9,573 nucleotides of DNA from a virus (taxonomy: Duplodnaviria; Heunggongvirae; Uroviricota; Caudoviricetes): the IMG/VR virus record IMGVR_UViG_2617270962_000004, positions 1-9,573 of that record. One strand, given 5' to 3'. Position 1 is the stretch's first letter. Each line of letters begins with the position of its first letter. Positions 1 through 9,573 of the stretch are shown piece after piece. The notes beneath the pieces are model-generated. The model worked only from the letters and a program-made list of their open reading frames with translations, did no database searches and had not been told where the DNA came from. Position numbers and translations under genes: made by a program.

Positions 1-13
1 GTAATTTCATCAT
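1..13 (-). CDS. 5' end of the next early-operon gene (partial, continues beyond window start)
   Basis: On the minus strand GGGGG lies about 7 nt upstream of an ATG at 13..11 (reads ATG ATG AAA TTA ...), directly after the TGA stop (19..17) of the upstream ORF. Only 4 codons are visible. Confidence 0.25.
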
Positions 14-16
14 GCA

Positions 17-532
17 TCACCCCCTGACTCGCTTTTCAGCAGCATAAAACTCATCAGACAGTATTTCGGTCATTTTCTGTTTTGCGGGTTTTACGCCGCA
101 CTGAAGGTAAATCACATCGTCAACGCAGAACCACTTCACAGGGCCAAACAGGATTGCCGAGAAATCAATACCCAGCCAGAACAACAGCGCATCGGTTCTG
201 GCATACGTGACGGGCGAATATTCACGCCACAGACTGTTCAGTTCATCAGAGGCAACACGCAGGGTTTTAGGGATACGTGATGTGCGCGGTGTGCAGCTCC
301 AGCCATTCGACGCAGTCGGTTTTCGCCATAAGTCGCGATGAAAAGGATATTTGTCCTCCGTAAAACGCAGTCCCTTAAAGCAAAATCCACTGATACCGGA
401 TACAAATACCGACCGGCACGCAACATTCAGCACGGCCTCAAGGCGTTTTGCCTCATCCTTAACTTTCTGGCAGTCCTGCTGGTATTTTTGCCACGCAGCC
501 AGCGCGGAAGGGTTTGATGTTTTAAAGAACAT
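17..532 (-). CDS. hypothetical prophage early-region protein (171 aa)
   Basis: Intact ORF in the same orientation as the early operon. Its ATG (532..530) overlaps the TAA stop of the upstream gene by one base (TAATG), suggesting translational coupling. I recognise no family from the sequence. Confidence 0.6.
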   Translation of the reverse strand: MFFKTSNPSALAAWQKYQQDCQKVKDEAKRLEAVLNVACRSVFVSGISGFCFKGLRFTEDKYPFHRDLWRKPTASNGWSCTPRTSRIPKTLRVASDELNSLWREYSPVTYARTDALLFWLGIDFSAILFGPVKWFCVDDVIYLQCGVKPAKQKMTEILSDEFYAAEKRVRG

Positions 533-1065
533 TACGCCACCTCCGCAGATATCCCGGCAGGCGCTGCTGTCCGGTCAACAATCAGGTAGCGCAGAACATG
601 TTCAGTGATATTCCAGCCGCTTAAACCGCAGATAATGACGCCCAGGCGTATGTCGATATACGCCATCACAAACTGGGGCACGCCTTCTTTCATGGCCTGC
701 TCATCAACTTCAGCCACCACATAAACGGTTTCACAGGTCAGAACGCCCTGAGCAAATTCCCACGCCATCGACGGAATATCATGCCCCTCAATCCATGGCA
801 GGGATTTTCTGAAGCTGCACCACTGAACATCATCAGCCGCAGATTCCTGGCTGCATTTGCGACGAACCGGCTGCACCGGGCGGGGGCGCGGAATATCATA
901 AAAACCGTTACATTCCGTCAGCACGCCTGCATCAACCGCATCACGCAGAAAATAAACCATGGAGGATGGCGGCATATTCATTTTTTCAGCCAGTACACCG
1001 CAGGTCAGGCGGCCATAAATACGCAGCCAGTTTTTAACCCCTTCAAGCACTTTTGCATCAATCAT
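532..1065 (-). CDS. hypothetical prophage early-region protein (177 aa), N-terminal region possibly winged-helix-like
   Basis: ORF with ATG at 1065..1063 preceded by GGGG (rc of 1075-1078). Co-oriented with the early operon; the stop overlaps the next start. The fold suggestion is an impression only. Confidence 0.6.
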   Translation of the reverse strand: MIDAKVLEGVKNWLRIYGRLTCGVLAEKMNMPPSSMVYFLRDAVDAGVLTECNGFYDIPRPRPVQPVRRKCSQESAADDVQWCSFRKSLPWIEGHDIPSMAWEFAQGVLTCETVYVVAEVDEQAMKEGVPQFVMAYIDIRLGVIICGLSGWNITEHVLRYLIVDRTAAPAGISAEVA

Positions 1066-1210
1066 GATTTATTTCCCCACCACATTATTAATGACGATAT
1101 AAACGTATTTCATATTTCTTAACCCTTATTTTCTGTTTTCAGGCGCAAGCAGTCCCCTGACGCGAGCGCCATAATTAAAATGAAGTGATATTTAATTGAT
1201 TAATGCGGTG

Positions 1211-1741
1211 TTATTTATTCAGTCCGGCGTCCTGTTCAAAAGGCTCGACATAAAAACTTTCAGCGCCTTTATTCACCTTGATACCGGCAATGCCTTTCAC
1301 AGCATCCGGCTCCGCCAGGACGGCTTCCTTGTTCACTTCCTCTTTCGTGCGGATGAAACGCTCAAGCCCCATACGGCGCAGCATTTCAATCACACCTTCC
1401 ACATCACGGCTGACGCTGCATGATGGCGTTCCCAGCCGCCATGACACCGTTCCGGTGGTCAGATTGGCTGTTTTGGTTTTGCCGCCGTTCGTCAGCTCAT
1501 CACGGTTGGTTTTGCACCAGTCCTGAATCCCTTTAAAAAGCACTTTGATTTGCTTTTTAAGATTTTCAATCTGCGGCGTATAACGGGCGGTGATTTCTGC
1601 CACTTCGTCATTCATCGCCGTTTCCAGGCGTAGCGCCTCTCGCTGAATATCTCCCAGGGTGCGGATATCACGGCTGACTTCTTCCCGGGTCTGCGGTGCC
1701 GCCTCGGCTGCGGCCTTTAATTTTGTAACGCGTTTAGCCAT
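1211..1741 (-). CDS. gam: Gam-like host-nuclease inhibitor (Mu Gam / Ku-like DNA-end-binding protein)
   Basis: 176-aa translation contains ...NRDELTNGGKTKTANLTTGTVSWRLGTPSCSVS...LGLERFIRTKEEVNKEAVLAEPDAVKGIAGIKV...PFEQDAGL, which matches my recollection of phage Mu Gam (about 174 aa) along its whole length. RBS AAGGA is 8-9 nt upstream of the ATG at 1741. Confidence 0.85.
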   Translation of the reverse strand: MAKRVTKLKAAAEAAPQTREEVSRDIRTLGDIQREALRLETAMNDEVAEITARYTPQIENLKKQIKVLFKGIQDWCKTNRDELTNGGKTKTANLTTGTVSWRLGTPSCSVSRDVEGVIEMLRRMGLERFIRTKEEVNKEAVLAEPDAVKGIAGIKVNKGAESFYVEPFEQDAGLNK

Positions 1742-1752
1742 TTTGTTTTTCC

Positions 1753-2046
1753 TTATTGCAGTGTGCCTGATGCTTTATGCACGCGGTGGCGTTTAATGAT
1801 GGCATCCGCTCCAAAAGACTGTGCAGATGCCTGAAATTCCGCTGAGAGAAACTGAATAATTGCAGGACTGTGATACTGGAGAATACTTGCATAAACGTCA
1901 CAGAGTGACGTCGGCCTGTTATCCGTATCACGTTCTGTTTTCACATCCACTCCAATCTTTTCATGCACTTCAACACAGTCATTGCCTGCCAACTTTTCGT
2001 CATGCGAAACATGATTAAATTCAAAAATAACGCGTACTTTGCTCAT
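1753..2046 (-). CDS. small hypothetical protein (97 aa), member of a duplicated family in the early region
   Basis: The ORF track extends it to 2073, but the internal ATG at 2046..2044 has a good RBS (AGGGG 7 nt upstream) and gives an N-terminus MSKVRVIFEFNH that parallels MSKVVRIIFEYKEH of the adjacent gene. The 3' end lies 12 nt from the gam start. Confidence 0.5.
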   Translation of the reverse strand: MSKVRVIFEFNHVSHDEKLAGNDCVEVHEKIGVDVKTERDTDNRPTSLCDVYASILQYHSPAIIQFLSAEFQASAQSFGADAIIKRHRVHKASGTLQ

Positions 2047-2050
2047 GGAA

Positions 2051-2323
2051 TTACCCCTGTTGATTAAATTCATTACCGTTAATAACCCCGGAAGTCATGC
2101 CTCTGTCTTTCATGAATGCACTGGCTTTCATTGCCACAAACTCTGCGAAGTTTCTGCTTTCTGCCAGCATAACCACCCCAAAAATCATGGCGGGTCCATT
2201 ATCTTTCTTCTTTATTCCGGTTGAACGTATGTCCAGACTTACCCCCATGCGCACTGTTCCATCAGCGTTTTTATGGATAACGTGCTCCTTATATTCGAAA
2301 ATAATGCGTACGACTTTACTCAT
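2051..2323 (-). CDS. small hypothetical protein (90 aa), paralogue of the 1753..2046 product
   Basis: ATG at 2323..2321 overlaps the TGA stop of the upstream gene (ATGA). RBS GAGG/ACGAGGA lies upstream. The N-terminus MSKVVRIIFEYKEH is shared with the neighbouring gene at both protein and nucleotide level. Confidence 0.55.
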   Translation of the reverse strand: MSKVVRIIFEYKEHVIHKNADGTVRMGVSLDIRSTGIKKKDNGPAMIFGVVMLAESRNFAEFVAMKASAFMKDRGMTSGVINGNEFNQQG

Positions 2324-2601
2324 CCTCTGGTCCTCGTTCTGTTTGGATAACTGACCCGGCGTCTAACCTCACGGCAGAACCGAATCATGGCATTAAAGGC
2401 TTCTTCCTCCGTCACCGCTTCCGGTATCCCCGGAACCAGTAACTGCTCCTGTTCATCACGTCCATGACGCGCCATAACCTCAATCACATGCCGTACCGTG
2501 GCAGGCTTTCCGGCAACTATCGGCAATGCACCTTCCGGCAGGACGTAACCAAACTCAATAAGACCACTCGACCACGCCCATGCAATGAGATTTTTTTTCA
2601 C
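2320..2601 (-). CDS. hypothetical prophage early-region protein (93 aa)
   Basis: ORF with GTG start at 2601..2599 preceded by a strong RBS GGGAGGTG. Translationally coupled to the downstream gene through an ATGA overlap. No recognisable motif. Confidence 0.5.
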   Translation of the reverse strand: MKKNLIAWAWSSGLIEFGYVLPEGALPIVAGKPATVRHVIEVMARHGRDEQEQLLVPGIPEAVTEEEAFNAMIRFCREVRRRVSYPNRTRTRG

Positions 2602-2602
2602 C

Positions 2603-2857
2603 TCACACCTCCCAGTAAACCGTGCAGCCGCTGATGCGGGTGGCCTTCACACGGCGGCGCAGGCCGTTGGTCTGTATGGTGATTTCAATTTCACCGGTTC
2701 CCTGCACGTTGCCTACCGGCGGCGTGGTTTTCAGTGCAAAACGTTGCGGATAGCGCTTACTGCGTTCCAGTACCGCACCGGCAAGTTCGGTCAGACGGCG
2801 CGCGCTGTTCAGGGAGTCGAATAAATTCATTTTGTTACCGCAGGATTGCATATTCAT
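2603..2857 (-). CDS. hypothetical prophage early-region protein (84 aa)
   Basis: ATG at 2857..2855 with RBS GAGGTG 5-6 nt upstream. The stop lies 1 nt before the next gene's start codon. No recognisable motif. Confidence 0.5.
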   Translation of the reverse strand: MNMQSCGNKMNLFDSLNSARRLTELAGAVLERSKRYPQRFALKTTPPVGNVQGTGEIEITIQTNGLRRRVKATRISGCTVYWEV

Positions 2858-2869
2858 ATAACACCTCGT

Positions 2870-3091
2870 TTAGCTGATTCGTTTTGCACCGATAAAACGA
2901 CAAATATTGCTGTAAGCTTCTTTCGCACCTTCACGATCAAGTCCGGCAGATATCACCATTCTGGTGCGATCATTAAATTCAAAAAGTAAATCGCCACATT
3001 CTTTATTTTCGGACACGGAGACTGCTTTGACGTTATCGAAATTCACCAGGTGAAAGCGTCCGTAAATATCAGGAATATTAAATGCAATCAT
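2870..3091 (-). CDS. small protein directly downstream of B (73 aa from ATG 3091; 75 aa if GTG 3097), in the position of Mu kil; function unproven
   Basis: ORF overlapping the end of the MuB-like gene. The ATG at 3091..3089 has RBS AGGTG 7 nt upstream. It contains an internal LLFEFNDRT segment resembling the N-termini of the two MSKV proteins. The Kil assignment rests on gene order only. Confidence 0.45.
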   Translation of the reverse strand: MIAFNIPDIYGRFHLVNFDNVKAVSVSENKECGDLLFEFNDRTRMVISAGLDREGAKEAYSNICRFIGAKRIS

Positions 3092-3093
3092 AA

Positions 3094-4026
3094 TCACACC
3101 TGTGAGAGTAATTCAGGGTTGGTATAAACCTCTTTAAAGGCCGCATTAATATGTTTTTCTGTCAGCGCCGCGCCTTCACCACTGGCGGTGATCCATGCCT
3201 GGTTAAGCGTATGTGTCAGAACGCGTAACGCTCCCGGCTTTTCAGCGATAGCCTGCATGACGGCCAGCTCGGCCTCACCACTGATCCCCCACGCCATGGC
3301 AATGGCCAGCACATCCGCCTTTTTGGCCTTGCGAAGTTGTTTTGTACGGGCAAGACGGCTGAACAGGCGCGATAAATCATCAAAGGCGCGGCGTCCACCT
3401 TTAAACAATCCGCGCGGGTTACCAATAAGCACCATCCCGATCCCCGTGGCGTCCTGGATTGCCCGGAGTTGCTCCAGACCGTCAATACCAAGATGATCCG
3501 CCTCATCCACAATCACCAGTCCACGCGTTCCCATCAGGCGACGGCGGATGGCGCGGGATAATGCCCCTTTGTTCGCGCGGGTGTAATCAATCCCCAGCGC
3601 ATCGGCCAGCTCCAGCAGACACTCCGTGACGCTGGAGTGCGCGGGTGACAGGGTGATCATCCAGGTGTTTGGTTGCTCCTGGCAGTAATTACGGGCAGTG
3701 GCCGTTTTACCCACACCCGGTACGCCCACAATAACGTTAATACAGCCCATCAGGCGAACCGCCTGAAACAGTGCGCGCAGCTCCTGGACTGTCTGAGTTT
3801 CCACAAACTGCGGCGGTTCCGGCAGTGCGCTTTGTTTATTCCAGTTCTCATACCAGGAGCGCAGGGAAGCAGCCACAGCAGCGTTATCGCCTTTATATTT
3901 TCCCTTACGGAAAGCCGATAATGTGCCGTCGGAAATCCCCGCCTCTCTGGCGATGGCATACTGCGTCAGTACGCCGCCATCAATAAGTTCATCAATGGTC
4001 TTGATTACATCGTTAATATCGGTCAT
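3094..4026 (-). CDS. B: MuB-like ATP-dependent target DNA activator (AAA+ ATPase)
   Basis: Translation contains a Walker A motif (VGVPGVGKTATARNY) and a Walker B-like motif (LVIVDEADHL). It aligns along its length with my recollection of phage Mu B (for example LPEPPQFVETQTV, KPGALRVL). Size 310-313 aa versus 312 for MuB. I prefer the ATG at 4026 (RBS GAGGTG 8 nt upstream) over the GTG at 4035 used by the ORF track. Confidence 0.9.
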   Translation of the reverse strand: MTDINDVIKTIDELIDGGVLTQYAIAREAGISDGTLSAFRKGKYKGDNAAVAASLRSWYENWNKQSALPEPPQFVETQTVQELRALFQAVRLMGCINVIVGVPGVGKTATARNYCQEQPNTWMITLSPAHSSVTECLLELADALGIDYTRANKGALSRAIRRRLMGTRGLVIVDEADHLGIDGLEQLRAIQDATGIGMVLIGNPRGLFKGGRRAFDDLSRLFSRLARTKQLRKAKKADVLAIAMAWGISGEAELAVMQAIAEKPGALRVLTHTLNQAWITASGEGAALTEKHINAAFKEVYTNPELLSQV

Positions 4027-4108
4027 ATTATTCACCTCGCTTGAGACAGCATTCTCCGAGACTGAAACCTCAAATAACCTGAGTCACCCCTCGGGTTATT
4101 TTTTTATT

Positions 4109-6199
4109 TCAGGCCAGCGGATCACTTTCTTTTAATTTCGCTTCGAGCAGTTGCAATCCCCGCTGGAAATTACGCTCGTATTCTTCATCAGGTTCATCGT
4201 CAGCGACAGGTTGCTGAACGGTCACCGTATTACCCACAGGGCGGTAGATGTTTTCCAGCCAGGGCTCCTGCGGCTTGTGCTCCAGCACGTTGACAACCTC
4301 ATCCTCGGCATCACGGATTTTTTCCTCTGCGCGTTTACGCATACCTTTAAGGCGCTGCTGCTGTTTGTAGTATTCCGCGCTGACAGGGAAGGCTTCGCGT
4401 TTATTGCCGTCCCATACCGCCTCGCAAATCACGCTGCCATCCGGGCGGCGCACGGTAATTCGTTCGGCATCATGAATGTCATAGCTGATAAGTACCTTAC
4501 GGCCATGCTCGTCACGCAGCTCGGGCGCGTAGTAAATATTATTCAGCCAGCGTATTTCACAGCGTCTTACAGGGCGCTCCACCATCGGCCGGAACATATC
4601 CCGCAGTTCAACATCGGACAGCCATTCAATTTCCGTGTCCTCTTCCGCCAGGCGTTTTTTTCTGAACTCCGCCGGGCTGTAATGTTTACCGTTCGGCTTC
4701 ATGGGTAATTCATCGTGCGGCCGGTTGTTGTACCACTCAACACCGTCACGAATGGCATCAATCAGTTCAGACCAGGACGGTAAATCACGCATCGCTGACT
4801 GCTGCCGGGCGTTCAGCCGTTTGCCCTGTTGCAGGGCACTGAATGCCGAGCGTAAATCGCGGTTGGTTTTACGTAACGTCTCGCGATCTGCTCCTTTCCC
4901 GAAATAGGTGCGGTATTTACGGGCTATGCGCATCGGTAATGTGCGGTTAAGCCGTTCGATAATGCCCCGTCCCTGCGGATTACCGGCAATCCCTGTCGGG
5001 TGATTAATCCCCAGTCGTGGCAGTATCCCCACAATCTCCTTATCCAGGACGTCGGCGGTTTCCCCGGAGCCATTATCCGAGTAATACAGAAACGGTTTGC
5101 CATGATGGCGAATACCGTGCTGTATGGCACCGGCTACGGCGAAAACATTTTCAGCCAGGTCAAGGCTCCAGCCCACCACAAAGCGCGTGCCACCGTCGAT
5201 AACAAAGGTCACTTCCGGTGCGAATGGCCGCCCGTGAACCGGGTGCGCGCATTTCAGCTTCATGCCGTGACCGTCACCAATCCAGACATAATTCACCGGC
5301 ATTTTTGACCAGTCGCGGCGCGTGAATCCCTCAAGCTGGCGGTATTCACTGCCAGTTACCCGGCCTTTTTGTTTCACCACTTCCGGCAGTTTCTTCATTG
5401 CGCGGCGAATGGTGTCATAAGAGGGCATGATATCGAGCATATAAGGCTCATCAGCGTGCCGGTGCTGCCATTCAGCAACAAAATCCTCGTAAGCCTCGGT
5501 CATTGGTCGGCCGTTTGACTGGCGATACTGCGCCAGAAATTCGGGCAGCCAGTTAATATCTTCGGCTTTTATTTCCTGGCGTTTACCCGGTGCCAGTAAA
5601 AGCAGGCGTTCAGCGGCGTTCTGTGCCTTGTTAAAGGCCGCAATCCAGCGTTTCAGCGTGATTTCACTCAACGCACGGCTGTTTCCCTTTTTGGCGTTCG
5701 CCGTCTCAACCATTGCCACAATGCGCTCGTCCAGTTGCGAACGTGCCAGGTTGTCAACGATAAACCGGATAGCCTTCGCACAGCTGAAACCAGGTTGTTG
5801 CGCGACTTTCAGAACTTCGCTGACGATCGCGATTCGTGCATCAGCCACCTGGCGCTGGTTTTCAGTCAGGGCATTGAGGCGTTCGAGCATCAGTTGTGGT
5901 GATCCGCGATATGCCTCCACCGCATCAACCACGGCAGATGAGCGTCTGGCCTTTGTCACCACCGGAGCCGGTGATTCATCAGCTTTTTGCGTCATCAGTT
6001 GAAGGGCATAACGTTCACGCAATACTTGTTGCGCGCCAGAAGGCAAACAATCGATATTAAATTCGATTGCTTTTGTCCCCTTACGTTTGCGTAACATGGC
6101 TGCATTTCCCGCAGCTGCTTTTGTGAGTCGATGGCGAATGTTATGTTCCATCATTGGTAAATCAGGAAGACCAACACATTCTTTTGCTGTTACCCACAT
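4109..6199 (-). CDS. A: MuA-like DDE transposase (transposable-phage transposase A)
   Basis: 696-aa ORF. The N-terminus MWVTAKECVGLPDLP...GTKAIEFNIDCLP resembles the MuA N-terminal DNA-binding domain (Mu: MELWVSPKECANLPGLP...GKAIEY). Size (Mu A is 663 aa) and position between ner-like and B-like genes fit. RBS GGGGGA lies 4-5 nt upstream of the ATG. Confidence 0.92.
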   Translation of the reverse strand: MWVTAKECVGLPDLPMMEHNIRHRLTKAAAGNAAMLRKRKGTKAIEFNIDCLPSGAQQVLRERYALQLMTQKADESPAPVVTKARRSSAVVDAVEAYRGSPQLMLERLNALTENQRQVADARIAIVSEVLKVAQQPGFSCAKAIRFIVDNLARSQLDERIVAMVETANAKKGNSRALSEITLKRWIAAFNKAQNAAERLLLLAPGKRQEIKAEDINWLPEFLAQYRQSNGRPMTEAYEDFVAEWQHRHADEPYMLDIMPSYDTIRRAMKKLPEVVKQKGRVTGSEYRQLEGFTRRDWSKMPVNYVWIGDGHGMKLKCAHPVHGRPFAPEVTFVIDGGTRFVVGWSLDLAENVFAVAGAIQHGIRHHGKPFLYYSDNGSGETADVLDKEIVGILPRLGINHPTGIAGNPQGRGIIERLNRTLPMRIARKYRTYFGKGADRETLRKTNRDLRSAFSALQQGKRLNARQQSAMRDLPSWSELIDAIRDGVEWYNNRPHDELPMKPNGKHYSPAEFRKKRLAEEDTEIEWLSDVELRDMFRPMVERPVRRCEIRWLNNIYYAPELRDEHGRKVLISYDIHDAERITVRRPDGSVICEAVWDGNKREAFPVSAEYYKQQQRLKGMRKRAEEKIRDAEDEVVNVLEHKPQEPWLENIYRPVGNTVTVQQPVADDEPDEEYERNFQRGLQLLEAKLKESDPLA

Positions 6200-6209
6200 A
6201 CATCCCCCA

Positions 6210-6476
6210 TCAAGCCACTTCTCTGGCGTCCACCTGGTATCTGCTGGGCCAGATTACAGCAGGTTCAACCCCTATTTTTTCGGCGATGGCGGCTTCGTAT
6301 TTACGGCACTGGCGGTAAAACACATTGCGCATTGATCCGCTTTTTAATCCTAACTCCCTTTCCAGTTCAGGGAGGTCTGTGCCTTTGTTTTCAAGGGCTG
6401 CATATACCGCTTTAGCAGACCAGTCACACCCCTCTCGAACAAACAAATTATTCGATGCTTGTCTGGATACCCTCAT
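6210..6476 (-). CDS. ner: Ner-like DNA-binding regulator (Ner/Nlp family)
   Basis: The C-terminal motif PAVIWPSRYQ matches the conserved end of Mu Ner and E. coli Nlp (PEVIWPSRY). It is the first gene of the early operon, directly upstream of the transposase. Confidence 0.8.
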   Translation of the reverse strand: MRVSRQASNNLFVREGCDWSAKAVYAALENKGTDLPELERELGLKSGSMRNVFYRQCRKYEAAIAEKIGVEPAVIWPSRYQVDAREVA

Positions 6477-6632
6477 TGTGTGATCCTCTCATGTTTACCT
6501 GAACCGATAATCAAAACCGGTTATCGATTTAGGTAAATCATAATCGCAAAATAATTCGATATCAACGGTTTTTTGCGAGCATATCGAAATTAAATGCGAT
6601 GTCGATAATTTCTTTGTTTTATAGGGGGTTAT
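6477..6632. promoter_or_regulatory. divergent promoter/operator region between the ner-like gene and the repressor gene
   Basis: 156-bp AT-rich intergenic region between divergently transcribed genes. It holds at least five copies of the hexamer TCGATA / TATCGA in alternating orientation (about 6505, 6522, 6556, 6582, 6602) and the palindrome AACCGGTT (6515-6522). Exact -35/-10 elements could not be assigned confidently by eye. Confidence 0.6.
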
Positions 6633-7244
6633 ATGGATAAGGCAGAAAAAACCGTATCCAGTGCGGAACGGTTTATTGATATGGAAGGAATAAACCGATT
6701 TTCAGAACGCTTAGCTATGGCTATGGGAAACATGACAAACGTCGAACTGGCGACCCTTTGTGGACTATCTGAAGCCACAGTAAGAAATTACAGGAAGGGG
6801 AAAAACTTCCCTCCTTTGGATAAACTGGCCTTAATAGCTAAAGCCTGTAATTGTTCACTCGACTGGTTGGCCACAGGCAAGAACGAAGATGAATGCGGAA
6901 AAATCGGAAAAAATTGCGATTCAGGTTCGGGTATTGATCAGGCGCTTAGCTCTCTAAGCCCCCAAGAGAAGCAATTAATCCTTACATTCATCAGGCGAGA
7001 AGGTACTAACAACCTTGTCAGGCTGGCAGCAATGAATACATCTACAATCAGCCAGGATGCGGTAGAAAGCATCATTGATGCCTTGCCATTACGTCCCGTA
7101 CTAAAAAATGCAATAAAGATAGGAATGGCGGGAAGTGAAGAAACAGACAAAGAGATTTTGCGCGTTATTGAGAAGTACAACTCGAGCAATAACGCCACCC
7201 AGGAATCAGGGGCAGTGACAGTAAAGAAAAATGTTGTTGGTTAA
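6633..7244 (+). CDS. prophage repressor, HTH XRE (Cro/C1)-type, 203 aa, functional analogue of Mu c
   Basis: Strong RBS AGGGGG 5 nt upstream of the ATG. Residues about 36-80 (NVELATLCGLSEATVRNYRKGKNFPPLDKLALIAKACNCSLDWLATG) form a typical XRE-family helix-turn-helix. It is transcribed divergently from ner/A/B towards the prophage end, as c is in Mu. I see no LexA-like S24 peptidase motif. Confidence 0.75.
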   Translation: MDKAEKTVSSAERFIDMEGINRFSERLAMAMGNMTNVELATLCGLSEATVRNYRKGKNFPPLDKLALIAKACNCSLDWLATGKNEDECGKIGKNCDSGSGIDQALSSLSPQEKQLILTFIRREGTNNLVRLAAMNTSTISQDAVESIIDALPLRPVLKNAIKIGMAGSEETDKEILRVIEKYNSSNNATQESGAVTVKKNVVG

Positions 7245-7416
7245 GCGCCATCGCTATCATGAGGTGGTGCTGTAAATACATATAGAGATCATATGACTCA
7301 TCCCAAGATAATCACGCTATTGAATAGTAATTCATGATGATTATCATACTGATTATAGTTAGATCGATTATGTGAGCATTTTGGCAGTTTGAAGATGTTT
7401 TGAAGAAGATTTTAAG

Positions 7417-7600
7417 GGTAAATTAGCAGTATCAAATGTGCCGCCGTTTTTTGATCTTTTGACTATTTGTTGAGCAGTCGGTATCAAAAAGAGTTTTCCG
7501 TCCGAAGTATACATCACCTGTTTTATTTCAGCATCTTACAGGTGATTTCACCTCCTTTCACTAAAACCCTTGTCGGTATCAAATGATTCACCTGGTTACA
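7417..7600. repeat. prophage terminus (attL-like) with three direct repeats of a putative transposase end-binding motif
   Basis: Direct repeats AGTATCAAATG (7428-7438), GGTATCAAAAA (7480-7490) and GGTATCAAATG (7575-7585). The element ends ...GGTTACA at 7600, so the other strand reads 5'-TGTAACC..., the 5'-TG terminus typical of Mu-like elements. The exact end is uncertain by a few bp. Confidence 0.55.
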
Positions 7601-8930
7601 CCCATGCGTCTTGATCGACAGAAGTTTTATAATGTGCATCGTTATAATCTACGATGCTGTCCGCGCTGTACGCTTTGCTGGCCTGGAAACCATCCGCAAC
7701 AATGACGCCGCCGTTATCAATTTCACAGGTAGTCGGGTTACCGTACTGACTCAATTCCGCAGCGGTAGCTGTACGCTCGAGACGCCATGGGTTATTGGAG
7801 TTTTCAGCGCTGGTACCCCGTGGGCAATCTTTAGACCCAACCCACCAGGCGTTCTTGTAAACATTACCATTGAAAATAACATGGTAAATTTCGCTACCTT
7901 CCTGGCCGCTCCACGCTTGCAATGAGTAATCGTTAACGCTATCCGCTGGTGTTGATGGCTCGCTGTTATCCGGAGTTGGGGTCACCGGTGTTTCCGGAGT
8001 TGGATCAACCGGAGTCACAGCACCGCCATTATTATCCGGCTTAACGGAACAGGAGCCAGGGTTACCATACTGGCTGATTTCTGTTGCCGTTGCCGCGCGA
8101 ACATAACGCCATGGGTTACTGGCATCGTTTTCTTTCGCATCGCCTGGGCAATTTGCCGCGCCTACCCACCAGGCGTTCTTATAAATGCCGCCGTTATAGA
8201 TAACGTACCATGTAGAAGAACCTTCCTGACCTTTCCAGGCTACTACAGCATAGTTGTCGTTTGACTTATCAGCTGGGGCTGGCTGAACATCAGGAGCCGG
8301 TTTAACGTCCGGTGCCGGTTTCACATCCGGTGAAGGCTGTGGTGCTGAAGTACAGGACTGTGGATTACTGGTTTCTGAGATTTCCGTTGCCGTAGCGGCA
8401 CGAACATAACGCCATGGGTTGCTGGCATCATTGCTTTTCGCATCACCCGGACAGTTAGAAGAGGCTACCCACCAGGCATTTTTATATACCGCACCATTAA
8501 AGACGACATACCAGGTCTGACCGCCCTGCTGTTTATTCCAGGCAACTACAGAAGAATTAGACGGAACAGTGCCCTGTGCTGGTGTAGCCGAACCGCCATT
8601 AGCCGGCGTATTGGATGCAGGCGTATTTGAATTTGAAGAAGATGAGCTGCCGCTCTTTTCGCAGGAAAGTGTATTGCCAAACTGACTAATTTCAGCAGCT
8701 GTTGCGGTACGCTTTAAACGCCACGGGTTAGTTGCATCATTTGCTTTCGCTTTTCCCGGGCAATTTGTAGAAGAAACCCACCAGGCATTTTCATAAATTT
8801 TGCCATCGAAAATAACCTGATATTTATTACCACCTTGTTGGTTATTCCATGCTTCCATTGCCAATGCTGGCAGAGCGGAACACACCAGCCCCATACCAAT
8901 CATAGATTTAGTAAATATATTTAATTTCAT
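7596..8930 (-). CDS. chiA: periplasmic endochitinase ChiA, 5' fragment (signal peptide plus four chitin-binding modules, 444 codons), truncated by the prophage insertion
   Basis: N-terminus MKLNIFTKSMIGMGLVCSALPALA is a signal peptide. Four about 65-aa modules repeat with the pattern AW...Y.V.FNG..Y.NAWWV...CPG...NPWR...TA.EIS, separated by S/T/P-rich linkers. RBS AAGGGA precedes the ATG. The last codon (GTG) and the TAA stop are supplied by the prophage end. E. coli ChiA is about 897 aa as I recall, so the catalytic domain is missing here. Confidence 0.85.
   Translation of the reverse strand: MKLNIFTKSMIGMGLVCSALPALAMEAWNNQQGGNKYQVIFDGKIYENAWWVSSTNCPGKAKANDATNPWRLKRTATAAEISQFGNTLSCEKSGSSSSSNSNTPASNTPANGGSATPAQGTVPSNSSVVAWNKQQGGQTWYVVFNGAVYKNAWWVASSNCPGDAKSNDASNPWRYVRAATATEISETSNPQSCTSAPQPSPDVKPAPDVKPAPDVQPAPADKSNDNYAVVAWKGQEGSSTWYVIYNGGIYKNAWWVGAANCPGDAKENDASNPWRYVRAATATEISQYGNPGSCSVKPDNNGGAVTPVDPTPETPVTPTPDNSEPSTPADSVNDYSLQAWSGQEGSEIYHVIFNGNVYKNAWWVGSKDCPRGTSAENSNNPWRLERTATAAELSQYGNPTTCEIDNGGVIVADGFQASKAYSADSIVDYNDAHYKTSVDQDAWV
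8277..8330 (-). repeat. in-frame 18-bp tandem repeat (3 units) encoding the linker PDVKPA PDVKPA PDVQPA within chiA
   Basis: Minus-strand units CCGGATGTGAAACCGGCA / CCGGACGTTAAACCGGCT / CCTGATGTTCAGCCAGCC, read directly from the sequence. Confidence 0.5.
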
Positions 8931-9170
8931 TATAATCCCTTGTGACGTAAAAACTGCAAAACAAAAGTCCTACGCAGGAATTATTTACGTTTTACGAGAA
9001 CCCTTCAATATGAATTAAAGTGCGGCATTAAAAATAAGAAAAAAGCCTGACAAATGAAGAATTTTAAAAACAGAAACATTCATATTTAAAATGTTAAATT
9101 GAATTGATATTTTAAATATGAATAATTTATTCGTTCTGACAGTACGAATAAGATATGCCGTCAACAAATG
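8931..9170 (-). promoter_or_regulatory. AT-rich chiA upstream region (promoter region, elements not individually assigned)
   Basis: 240-bp strongly AT-rich stretch between the tufA terminator and the chiA start. Contains a perfect 8-bp inverted repeat TTATTCGT-N9-ACGAATAA (9127-9151). Confidence 0.35.
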
Positions 9171-9197
9171 CAAAAAGGGCGCCGAAGCGCCCTTTTC
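9171..9197 (-). terminator. Rho-independent terminator of tufA (structurally bidirectional)
   Basis: CAAAAA-GGGCGC-CGAA-GCGCCC-TTTTC: a perfect 6-bp GC stem with a 4-nt loop. On the minus strand the stem is followed by TTTTTG, 25 nt after the tufA stop; the A-run on one side and T-run on the other allow termination in either direction. Confidence 0.8.
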
Positions 9198-9221
9198 AAT
9201 TCAAAACTAATTAACGTGTAA

Positions 9222-9573
<352 letters not shown>

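Follow-up and report, generated by a model that had tools for sequence, protein, structure and literature searches.

Five small early genes between the MuB-like gene and gam of a Mu-like Escherichia coli prophage include a Kil homologue and a relative of the C-terminal domain of D3112 Gam

Five small genes lie between B and gam

We analysed a stretch of 9573 nt (IMG/VR virus record IMGVR_UViG_2617270962_000004, positions 1–9573; here called the window) that contains the early, left-hand end of an Escherichia coli prophage of the Mu-like type, read on the minus strand. Between the gene of a MuB-like transposition ATPase (B) and gam it carries five small genes, here termed g1 to g5. We consider it probable that these are early genes of the prophage, with g2 encoding Kil, g3 a Gam-associated domain and g5 a homologue of phage D108 gp7, g4 being an extra gene and g1 a conserved one. 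The reality of the genes, their family assignments, the fusion of a g3-like domain to Gam and the distribution of the block were observed directly. The block matches what is usual for the semi-essential early region in Mu-like phages and contains nothing outside that known kind. Its single new lead is the fusion of g3 to Gam; the remainder is expected for a Mu-like phage.

The initial annotation of the window had placed five open reading frames (ORFs) of 73–97 codons between the MuB-like gene and gam, and the RefSeq annotation of relatives has the same five coding sequences (CDS). All are on the minus strand: g1 (2870–3091; 73 aa; PHROG 3375), g2 (2603–2857; 84 aa from the first ATG; PHROG 2679), g3 (2320–2601; 93 aa, GTG start; PHROG 1518), g4 (2051–2323; 90 aa; PHROG 4107) and g5 (1753–2046; 97 aa; PHROG 2230). 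The stop-to-start distances are 2 nt (B/g1), 12 nt (g1/g2), 1 nt (g2/g3), −4 nt (g3/g4, an ATGA overlap), 4 nt (g4/g5) and 11 nt (g5/gam). A Shine–Dalgarno-like motif precedes each start (AGGTG, GAGGTG, GGAGGTG, GAGGA, AGGGG and AAGGA). The tight packing and the individual ribosome-binding sites described initially are thus present, but instead of several ATGA or 1 nt overlaps there is a single true overlap, that of g3 and g4.

Promoter-like and terminator-like sites inside the block did not exceed their frequency in shuffled sequences, and an Rfam scan of the window matched no family. The short junctions and Shine–Dalgarno motifs, together with the lack of a promoter or terminator excess, agree with a single polycistronic early message of the kind known from Mu, where the semi-essential region lies within the long early transcript and comprises 14 ORFs, most of them unassigned, and where its deletion restores host viability (PMC3325207). 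In the prophage studied here, the block would most likely share one message with ner, A and B, started at the early promoter. Every cistron would use its own ribosome-binding site and translation would be coupled; since the cistrons lie very close, ribosomes could reinitiate on the next one.

Every ORF matched its PHROG profile over the full length (E ≤ 2e-38). We compared six diverged copies of the block. For pairs with enough differences, the ratio of non-synonymous to synonymous changes per site (dN/dS) was 0.16–0.29 for g1, 0.21–0.38 for g4 and 0.27–0.39 for g5. These values exceed that of gam (0.03–0.18) and most B comparisons. The proteins of g2 and g3 were nearly invariant, the changes in their genes being almost all synonymous. 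We conclude that all five genes are real, conserved and under purifying selection (dN/dS 0–0.4).

Scans of the five proteins against Pfam, NCBIfam and PADLOC gave no match, the local Pfam copy being one without PF26843. The statement in the initial annotation that none of the five is recognisable is borne out in so far as g1, g3, g4 and g5 have no sequence match in Pfam, NCBIfam, PADLOC or PDB. It does not hold for g2 (Kil) and g5 (D108 gp7 homologue), nor for g1 and g3, whose families recur in other transposable phages. A literature search found no functional study of these five proteins or of the C-terminal domain of D3112 Gam, and no assay of nuclease inhibition or end protection by the D3112-type domain.

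The g2 product is related to Kil of Mu

The g2 protein matched PHROG family phrog_2679, named 'Kil', with E 6.6e-46 over residues 6–84, and phrog_2743, the family of Mu Kil itself, with E 9e-4. Mu Kil in turn matched phrog_2679 (E 9e-5), and the two PHROGs cross-match reciprocally. In direct comparison the Smith–Waterman score of g2 and Mu Kil was 58; shuffled sequences scored 22.6±4.2 and none out of 2000 reached 58. BLASTP aligned the two with 33% identity over 39 aa (E 2e-4). The exact g2 protein bears PF26843 (Kil_protein) in the precomputed hits of the collection. Kil escaped our own Pfam scan because the local copy is without that model; Mu Kil itself was also unmatched there.

Judged by these profile matches, g2 is a Kil homologue. 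It resembles Mu Kil (Mup05; PF26843; PHROGs 2743 and 2679) at the family level, in size and in its place in the early operon after B, and the two have a C-terminal motif (…G-C-x-V/I-x-W) in common. It differs in that the identity is confined to the 39 aligned residues and in belonging to the other PHROG subfamily. In-frame alternative starts of g2 are M3 (at 2851) and M10 (at 2830). Expression of Mu kil leads to spherical E. coli cells, according to the passage in PMC3961180 that cites Waggoner 1989. By homology, g2 would have an early host-killing and cell-shape function, and a corresponding killing and rounding phenotype may be expected of it.

The BcepMu-type phage PhiKM encodes an 89-aa protein between its B-like gene and gam (L042, 2575–2844; L numbers denote individual loci). 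Its C-terminus, …HGCRVVWPE, resembles the Kil motif as found in Mu (…NGCQIIWR) and in g2 (…SGCTVYWEV). A relative of this protein is encoded after a g3-like gene in L088 (1190–1426). The PhiKM protein may represent a third Kil subfamily.

The g3 domain is fused to Gam in D3112

The g3 protein matched phrog_1518 (E 3.8e-43), and its close relatives are named 'host nuclease inhibitor protein' at NCBI. When phage genomes were searched with g3 by tblastn, matches were found in 76 records, 65 of which are Pseudomonas phages. The match in D3112 falls inside the gene annotated gam (L039, 3976–4776; NP_938220, 266 aa). The encoded protein consists of a Mu-Gam domain (residues 1–161), which is 54% identical to Gam of the window, and a g3-like domain (residues 176–248), which is 43% identical to g3 (BLASTP E 8e-19). 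The similarity of g3 to this C-terminal extension covers 74 residues and includes the motifs W-x-S-G-x-I-E-F-G, P-x-G-A, A-R-H and L-L-V-P-G-x-P-E-A. Unlike the extension, g3 is a separate gene, located two genes upstream of gam.

Since the g3-like match lies in a fusion protein, the label 'host nuclease inhibitor' is inherited from the fusion and does not reflect homology to Gam. Stand-alone g3-like proteins probably owe their label to the D3112-type fusion. We also observed that Gam of the window matches only the first 159 of the 298 profile positions of PHROG 18351, which is probably the fused form of Gam.

An exhaustive search with g3 yielded 546 representative clusters at E ≤ 1e-3. Most members of the family are stand-alone proteins of 80–110 aa; others are duplicated in tandem or extended by unrelated sequence. 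No Pfam match was found among 146 family members, and neither g3 nor the family profile had a significant match to PDB sequences. The AlphaFold2 (AF2) model of g3 is confident, with a predicted local distance difference test (pLDDT) score of 89.8, and is made up of three strands and two helices. By fold it comes closest to MbtH-like adaptor proteins, to which the resemblance is weak. Compared with MbtH-like proteins (YbdZ; PDB 5ja1_B), g3 has 9–14% identity, an additional C-terminal helix and a basic tail. A search of BFVD for similar folds gave nothing significant, the top weak matches being baculovirus proteins.

Two candidate identities of g3 were rejected. One was an MbtH-like protein (PF03621): none of the 146 family members gave a Pfam MbtH hit even at E ≤ 10, so that the resemblance is a fold-level hint only. 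The other was a Mu Gam/Ku-like end binder: g3 had no Pfam match to the Gam profile (PF07352), its alignment to D3112 Gam is limited to the C-terminal part outside the Gam domain, and its 93 residues are modelled as three strands and two helices.

Among 32 Gam loci of other species, g3 relatives were present in four, in every case within 500 nt of gam and nowhere else in these loci. In L087, a more distant prophage, g3 and gam are one gene apart. A g3 relative follows B directly in L088 and L089, and in L090 one gene lies between them. The Burkholderia phage KL4 (L094, 9066–12709), which is integrase-bearing, lambdoid-type and non-transposable, has a g3 homologue in a rightward early operon, with exonuclease VIII and RecT encoded approximately 1.5 kb further downstream. 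In phage lambda, kil, gam, bet and exo are found at roughly this position.

Mu-type Gam dimers are reported to block the loading of RecBCD at DNA ends and thereby to license Gabija (PMC12407980, in the passages retrieved, which do not discuss a C-terminal domain of Gam). The natural Gam::g3 fusion suggests a role of the g3 family in the protection of phage DNA ends. Tentatively, and from sequence relationships, we propose that the g3 domain acts in the same process as Gam, which concerns phage DNA ends and host nucleases, and that it would most likely bind a host protein rather than DNA. A physical dependence on Gam is not part of this reading.

Directly 3′ of the g3 start codon is a homopolymer of eight A residues (A8; 2591–2598, minus strand). 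The run is A8 in 27 loci, A7 in L002, where the start is shifted and the RefSeq CDS is shorter, and A9 in L083. Some relatives have ATGAAACGAAAT in its place and no homopolymer. The changes in run length may result from slippage or from sequencing errors. The GTG start of the window is replaced by ATG at the same position in some relatives.

The g1, g4 and g5 products

The g1 protein matched phrog_3375 (E 5e-42), a family that bears no functional assignment, and had no Pfam, NCBIfam or PDB sequence match. It is a conserved small protein whose gene follows B, and it was kept in every cassette variant that we saw. A 33% identical homologue (pairwise E 9e-10) is encoded between kil and gp7 in the D108-like contigs L084–L086, at the place where Mu has gp6, and a 42% identical one directly after B in L087.

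The initial annotation had related a segment of g1, LLFEFNDRT, to g4 and g5. What remains of this is an exact 14-mer, TTTTTGAATTTAAT, which occurs in the same reading frame in g1 (2972–2985) and g5 (2014–2027) and nowhere else in the window. At the protein level the comparison of g1 and g5 is at chance level: the Smith–Waterman score was reached by 536 of 2000 shuffles, and hhalign gave a probability of 3% over 9 columns. At the DNA level, 14 of 1000 codon shuffles attained the score, a figure not yet adjusted for ten gene pairs. We regard the proposed link as unproven. By Smith–Waterman and hhalign, g1 was also rejected as a relative of g4 or of Mu gp6.

The g5 protein is, by its sequence, a homologue of D108 gp7. 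Besides matching phrog_2230 (E 1.8e-38), it aligned with D108 gp7 at a Smith–Waterman score of 74, which none of 5000 shuffles reached (23.7±4.3), and the similarity was still significant when the first 12 residues were dropped, again with no shuffle reaching the score. The hhalign probability was 96% (E 2e-9, 70 columns). The two proteins are of the same size and come from the same kil–gam region; their identity is approximately 28%, and in the window a second, partly related gene, g4, adjoins g5. A g5-like gene (27% identical) is located upstream of gam in L087.

The g4 protein matched phrog_4107 (E 7e-58). Word-indexed homologue searches, which found close relatives only, gave 41 clusters for g4, 21 for g5 and seven for g3, and every source name given for the g4 clusters was Escherichia coli. 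The gene is missing from L087 and L080. Its occurrence in E. coli alone and its absence from L087 point to a lineage-specific extra copy.

The proposal of a duplicated small-protein family comprising g4 and g5 stands for the N-terminal third, at both protein and DNA level, and fails for the rest of the length. The Smith–Waterman score of the two proteins was 44 (shuffles 24.1±4.3; reached by four of 2000 and six of 5000), but without the first 12 residues the score was reached by 368 of 3000 shuffles. Comparison of the two families by hhalign gave probabilities of 84–87% (E 4e-6 to 8e-6), restricted to the N-terminal 33–46 columns. The 5′ end of g4 (2289–2323, minus strand) and that of g5 (2015–2046, minus strand), which holds the 14-mer common with g1, match in 28 of 32 bases with a gap of one codon, a score that none of 1000 codon shuffles reached. 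On the basis of these alignments g4 is a partial paralogue of g5, with the N-terminal part of approximately 35 residues in common. It would share with g5 only this N-terminal β-hairpin module of gp7 type.

The nearly identical phages Mu and D108 each carry a gp7 gene at the same place, and the two products have the first 12 residues alone in common (hhalign, 12 columns, E 4e-4); the D108 annotation states no similarity of its gp7 to that of Mu. Mu gp7 matched phrog_2230 with E 0.009, and comparison of the g4 and g5 families with Mu gp7 (PHROG 10252) by hhalign gave probabilities of at most 1.2%. An assignment of g4 as the orthologue of Mu gp7 was rejected, as neither Smith–Waterman nor hhalign comparisons supported it. 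An alignment of the four subfamilies (g4, g5, D108 gp7 and Mu gp7) is collinear, with similar lengths of 87–97 aa. PDB sequence searches with the g4 and g5 profiles gave chance-level matches only.

Distribution and gene content of the block

Of 5426 complete E. coli genomes, 232 (about 4%) carry the block, which occupies 276 places in them. Within this set, B was present at 277 places (233 genomes) and gam at 274 (232 genomes). As the block co-occurs with B and gam throughout, it is a fixed part of this prophage lineage. The cassette is more diverged than B: its best match was below 95% identity in 113 of 233 records, compared with eight of 234 records for B.

The comparison of gene content across related Mu-like prophages, which the initial annotation had suggested, was carried out on 49 loci from RefSeq and IMG/VR, typed by phmmer, and revealed modest variation. 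Most of them have the order B–g1–kil–g3–g4–g5–gam. In six loci (L051, L064, L069, L071, L072 and L078) a Mu gp8-like gene is inserted before kil and g3 is gone. The gp8-like ORF is joined in frame to kil by a small deletion in L005 (1212–1844) and L079 (2517–3149), where g3 is gone as well. The g3 gene alone is missing in L063, L068 and L082, and both g3 and g4 are missing in L080. In L053 (2976–3227) an in-frame deletion joins the first 48 residues of g1 to the last 35 of g3 and removes kil. The more distant L087, whose Gam is 76% identical to that of the window, has the order B, g1 (42% identical), gp8-like, Kil (66%), g3 (52%), g5-like (27%) and Gam.

The slot between B and gam is modular, with modestly variable gene content, yet it is no free-for-all. 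The initial view of the region as a hot-spot for accessory genes is accurate in that gene content differs among relatives. It is at odds with the conserved order of the five genes in most loci and with the presence of the block wherever B and gam are found.

Relation to Mu and weighing of alternatives

The block corresponds to the segment of Mu that contains kil and gp6–gp9: it has the same position and strand logic, five small genes, B and Gam as flanks and a Kil homologue. Kil alone is common with Mu itself; counterparts of Mu gp6, gp8 and gp9 are lacking, although some sister prophages have a Mu gp8-like gene in the place of g3. In Mu, kil comes directly after B; in the block it comes second. 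The g3 domain is common in transposable phages of the BcepMu and D3112 types, the counterpart of g1 is an allele present in some D108-like phages, and g4 is specific to the lineage of the window. The g1, g4 (PHROG 4107) and g5 proteins represent small Mu/D108-type families. Like g3, they carry no assigned function, as is the case for most Mu genes of this region (PMC3325207). Our best guess is that g1, g4 and g5 are small binders of host proteins for early takeover.

Some observations weigh against our reading of the block. The alignment of g2 with Mu Kil itself is restricted to the C-terminal ~39 residues (33% identity), and the AF2 model of g5 is poor (pLDDT 55) and unusable for fold comparison. 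The label 'host nuclease inhibitor' of g3-like proteins is an annotation transfer and not an assay result. None of the top 150 representatives of the g3 family has the fusion to Gam. In L090, Gam is encoded 3.2 kb downstream of the g3 relative, and L089 has no Gam in the 4 kb examined. A Mu-type Gam is encoded nowhere in the KL4 genome, and the link between g3 and Gam is thus not universal.

The last points bear on the possibility that g3 is unrelated to Gam and serves as a general early-operon adaptor for another host factor, the D3112 fusion being incidental. This explanation, which we hold to be possible though rather unlikely, would account for KL4, for the position of g3 relatives at or near B in L088, L089 and L090, for their presence in only four of 32 Gam loci and for best fold matches that are MbtH-like adaptors, not DNA-end factors. 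However, the fusion is stable across D3112-type Pseudomonas phages, to which the 65 Pseudomonas records matched by g3 testify, g3 is always beside gam where it occurs in Gam loci, and the KL4 homologue belongs to the operon of an exonuclease/RecT recombination module. For g4 and g5, two histories suit the pattern: an old duplication after which the copies diverged strongly, or a common N-terminal module at which alleles are exchanged. The second of these would make the likeness a recombination or mosaic joint: gp7-type alleles would have been swapped at a conserved 5′ module (M-S/A-K-V-x-I-F-E-F/Y), with two of them left in tandem. We entertain this tentatively, as the similarity is limited to the first ~35 codons (at the DNA level to the first ~35 nt), Mu gp7 and D108 gp7 differ beyond residue 12 in the same slot, and the four subfamilies align collinearly. 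The hhalign match of g4 and g5 nevertheless extends past the first strand, and the collinear predicted secondary structure would also be expected if the genes duplicated long ago and then diverged; both readings may hold together.

For the block as a whole, the initial annotation had considered host-interference and anti-defence functions. Such a reading would make the block an anti-defence island in which g1, g3, g4 and g5 inhibit bacterial immune systems and are exchanged as cassettes among Mu-like phages. The alternative architectures (loss of g3, insertion of the gp8-like gene, loss of kil or g4 in single cases), the elevated dN/dS of g1, g4 and g5, the greater divergence of the cassette compared with B and the nature of the genes (early, small, no known domains) are all in line with such an island. 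On the other hand, none of the five proteins matched a characterised anti-defence protein or a PADLOC model, dN/dS is well under 1, most of the 49 loci keep the five genes in one order, and the block occurs wherever B and gam do. Moreover, g1, kil, g3 and g5 are retained in the distant L087, which fits core accessory functions better than arms-race cargo. We therefore regard an anti-defence island as unlikely. Far more improbable still is that any of the five reading frames arose by chance or, the prophage being defective, is a pseudogene in decay. Single relatives do show frameshifts in the A8 run of g3 (L002, L083) and in-frame deletion fusions (g1::g3 in L053; gp8-like::kil in L005 and L079). 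However, most of the 49 loci have intact copies of all five, synonymous changes per site are clearly above non-synonymous ones, each ORF has a full-length PHROG match, and homologues at 27–66% identity retain their order in L087.

Our preferred reading, that of early genes in a Mu-type semi-essential region, improves the annotation of genes that are mostly called 'hypothetical protein' in the roughly 4% of complete E. coli genomes that carry the block, O157:H7 strains among them. It allows g2 to be named as Kil and g5 as a D108 gp7 homologue, and it identifies the widespread 'host nuclease inhibitor' label on g3-like proteins as a transfer from the fusion protein. The binding of DNA ends by Gam-type proteins has recently been tied to the exclusion of RecBCD and to sensing by Gabija (PMC12407980), which makes an accessory module of Gam worthy of interest. 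The Gam::g3 fusion suggests that a large, structurally confident and uncharacterised domain family takes part in DNA-end protection. Here, g3 would act with Gam's process against host nucleases through binding of a host protein. More speculatively, and with considerable doubt on our part, the g3 family (at least 546 clusters, no Pfam model, no solved structure, fused to Gam in D3112-type phages) could act jointly with Mu-type Gam at the ends of phage DNA as an anti-nuclease or anti-defence module not described so far, with g1, g4 and g5 as further exchanged takeover or anti-defence effectors.

Flanking genes and the prophage end

The order of the genes around the block is that of Mu (Ner, A, B, Gam, gp11-like, gp12-like), and these flanks support the initial placement of the block in the promoter-proximal part of a Mu-like semi-essential early region. 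A repressor gene (6633–7244) is on the plus strand. The other genes are on the minus strand: a Ner-like gene (6210–6476), transposase A (4109–6199), B (3094–4035), which is the upstream neighbour of the block, gam (1211–1741), its downstream neighbour, and the gp11-like (532–1065) and gp12-like (17–532) genes. B matched Pfam Phage-MuB_C (1.4e-24) and AAA_22 (4e-18), and B of RefSeq relatives begins three codons later than that of the window. Gam, a Mu Gam/Ku-like DNA-end binding protein, matched Pfam Phage_Mu_Gam (5.5e-42). Identities to the counterparts in phage Mu are 48% for B, 57% for Gam, 69% for gp11 and 55% for gp12. The element is probably of the type called Sp18, and O157:H7 genomes are among the carriers of this prophage.

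The gap between gam and the gp11-like gene (1066–1210) is merely a spacer of ~145 bp in the window, L002 and L006. In sister prophages it holds an additional gene. The product is a DUF5420 protein in L003; in L004, L005, L092 and L093 it is a hypothetical protein of 180 aa. As an accessory slot, this gap seems more plainly variable than the block between B and gam.

The left end of the prophage (…GGTTACA; 7540–7600, stopping at ~7600) splits a chitinase-like ORF of 444 codons (7596–8930, minus strand), and the Mu-like element therefore sits within a host gene. This ORF contains repeated segments of chitin-binding type and adjoins the 3′ end of the gene for EF-Tu (9222–9482). All remaining exact 14-mer repeats of the window are located in it (e.g. 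7840/8164, 8098/8401 and 8467/8776; region 7840–8480), because its domains are internally repeated.

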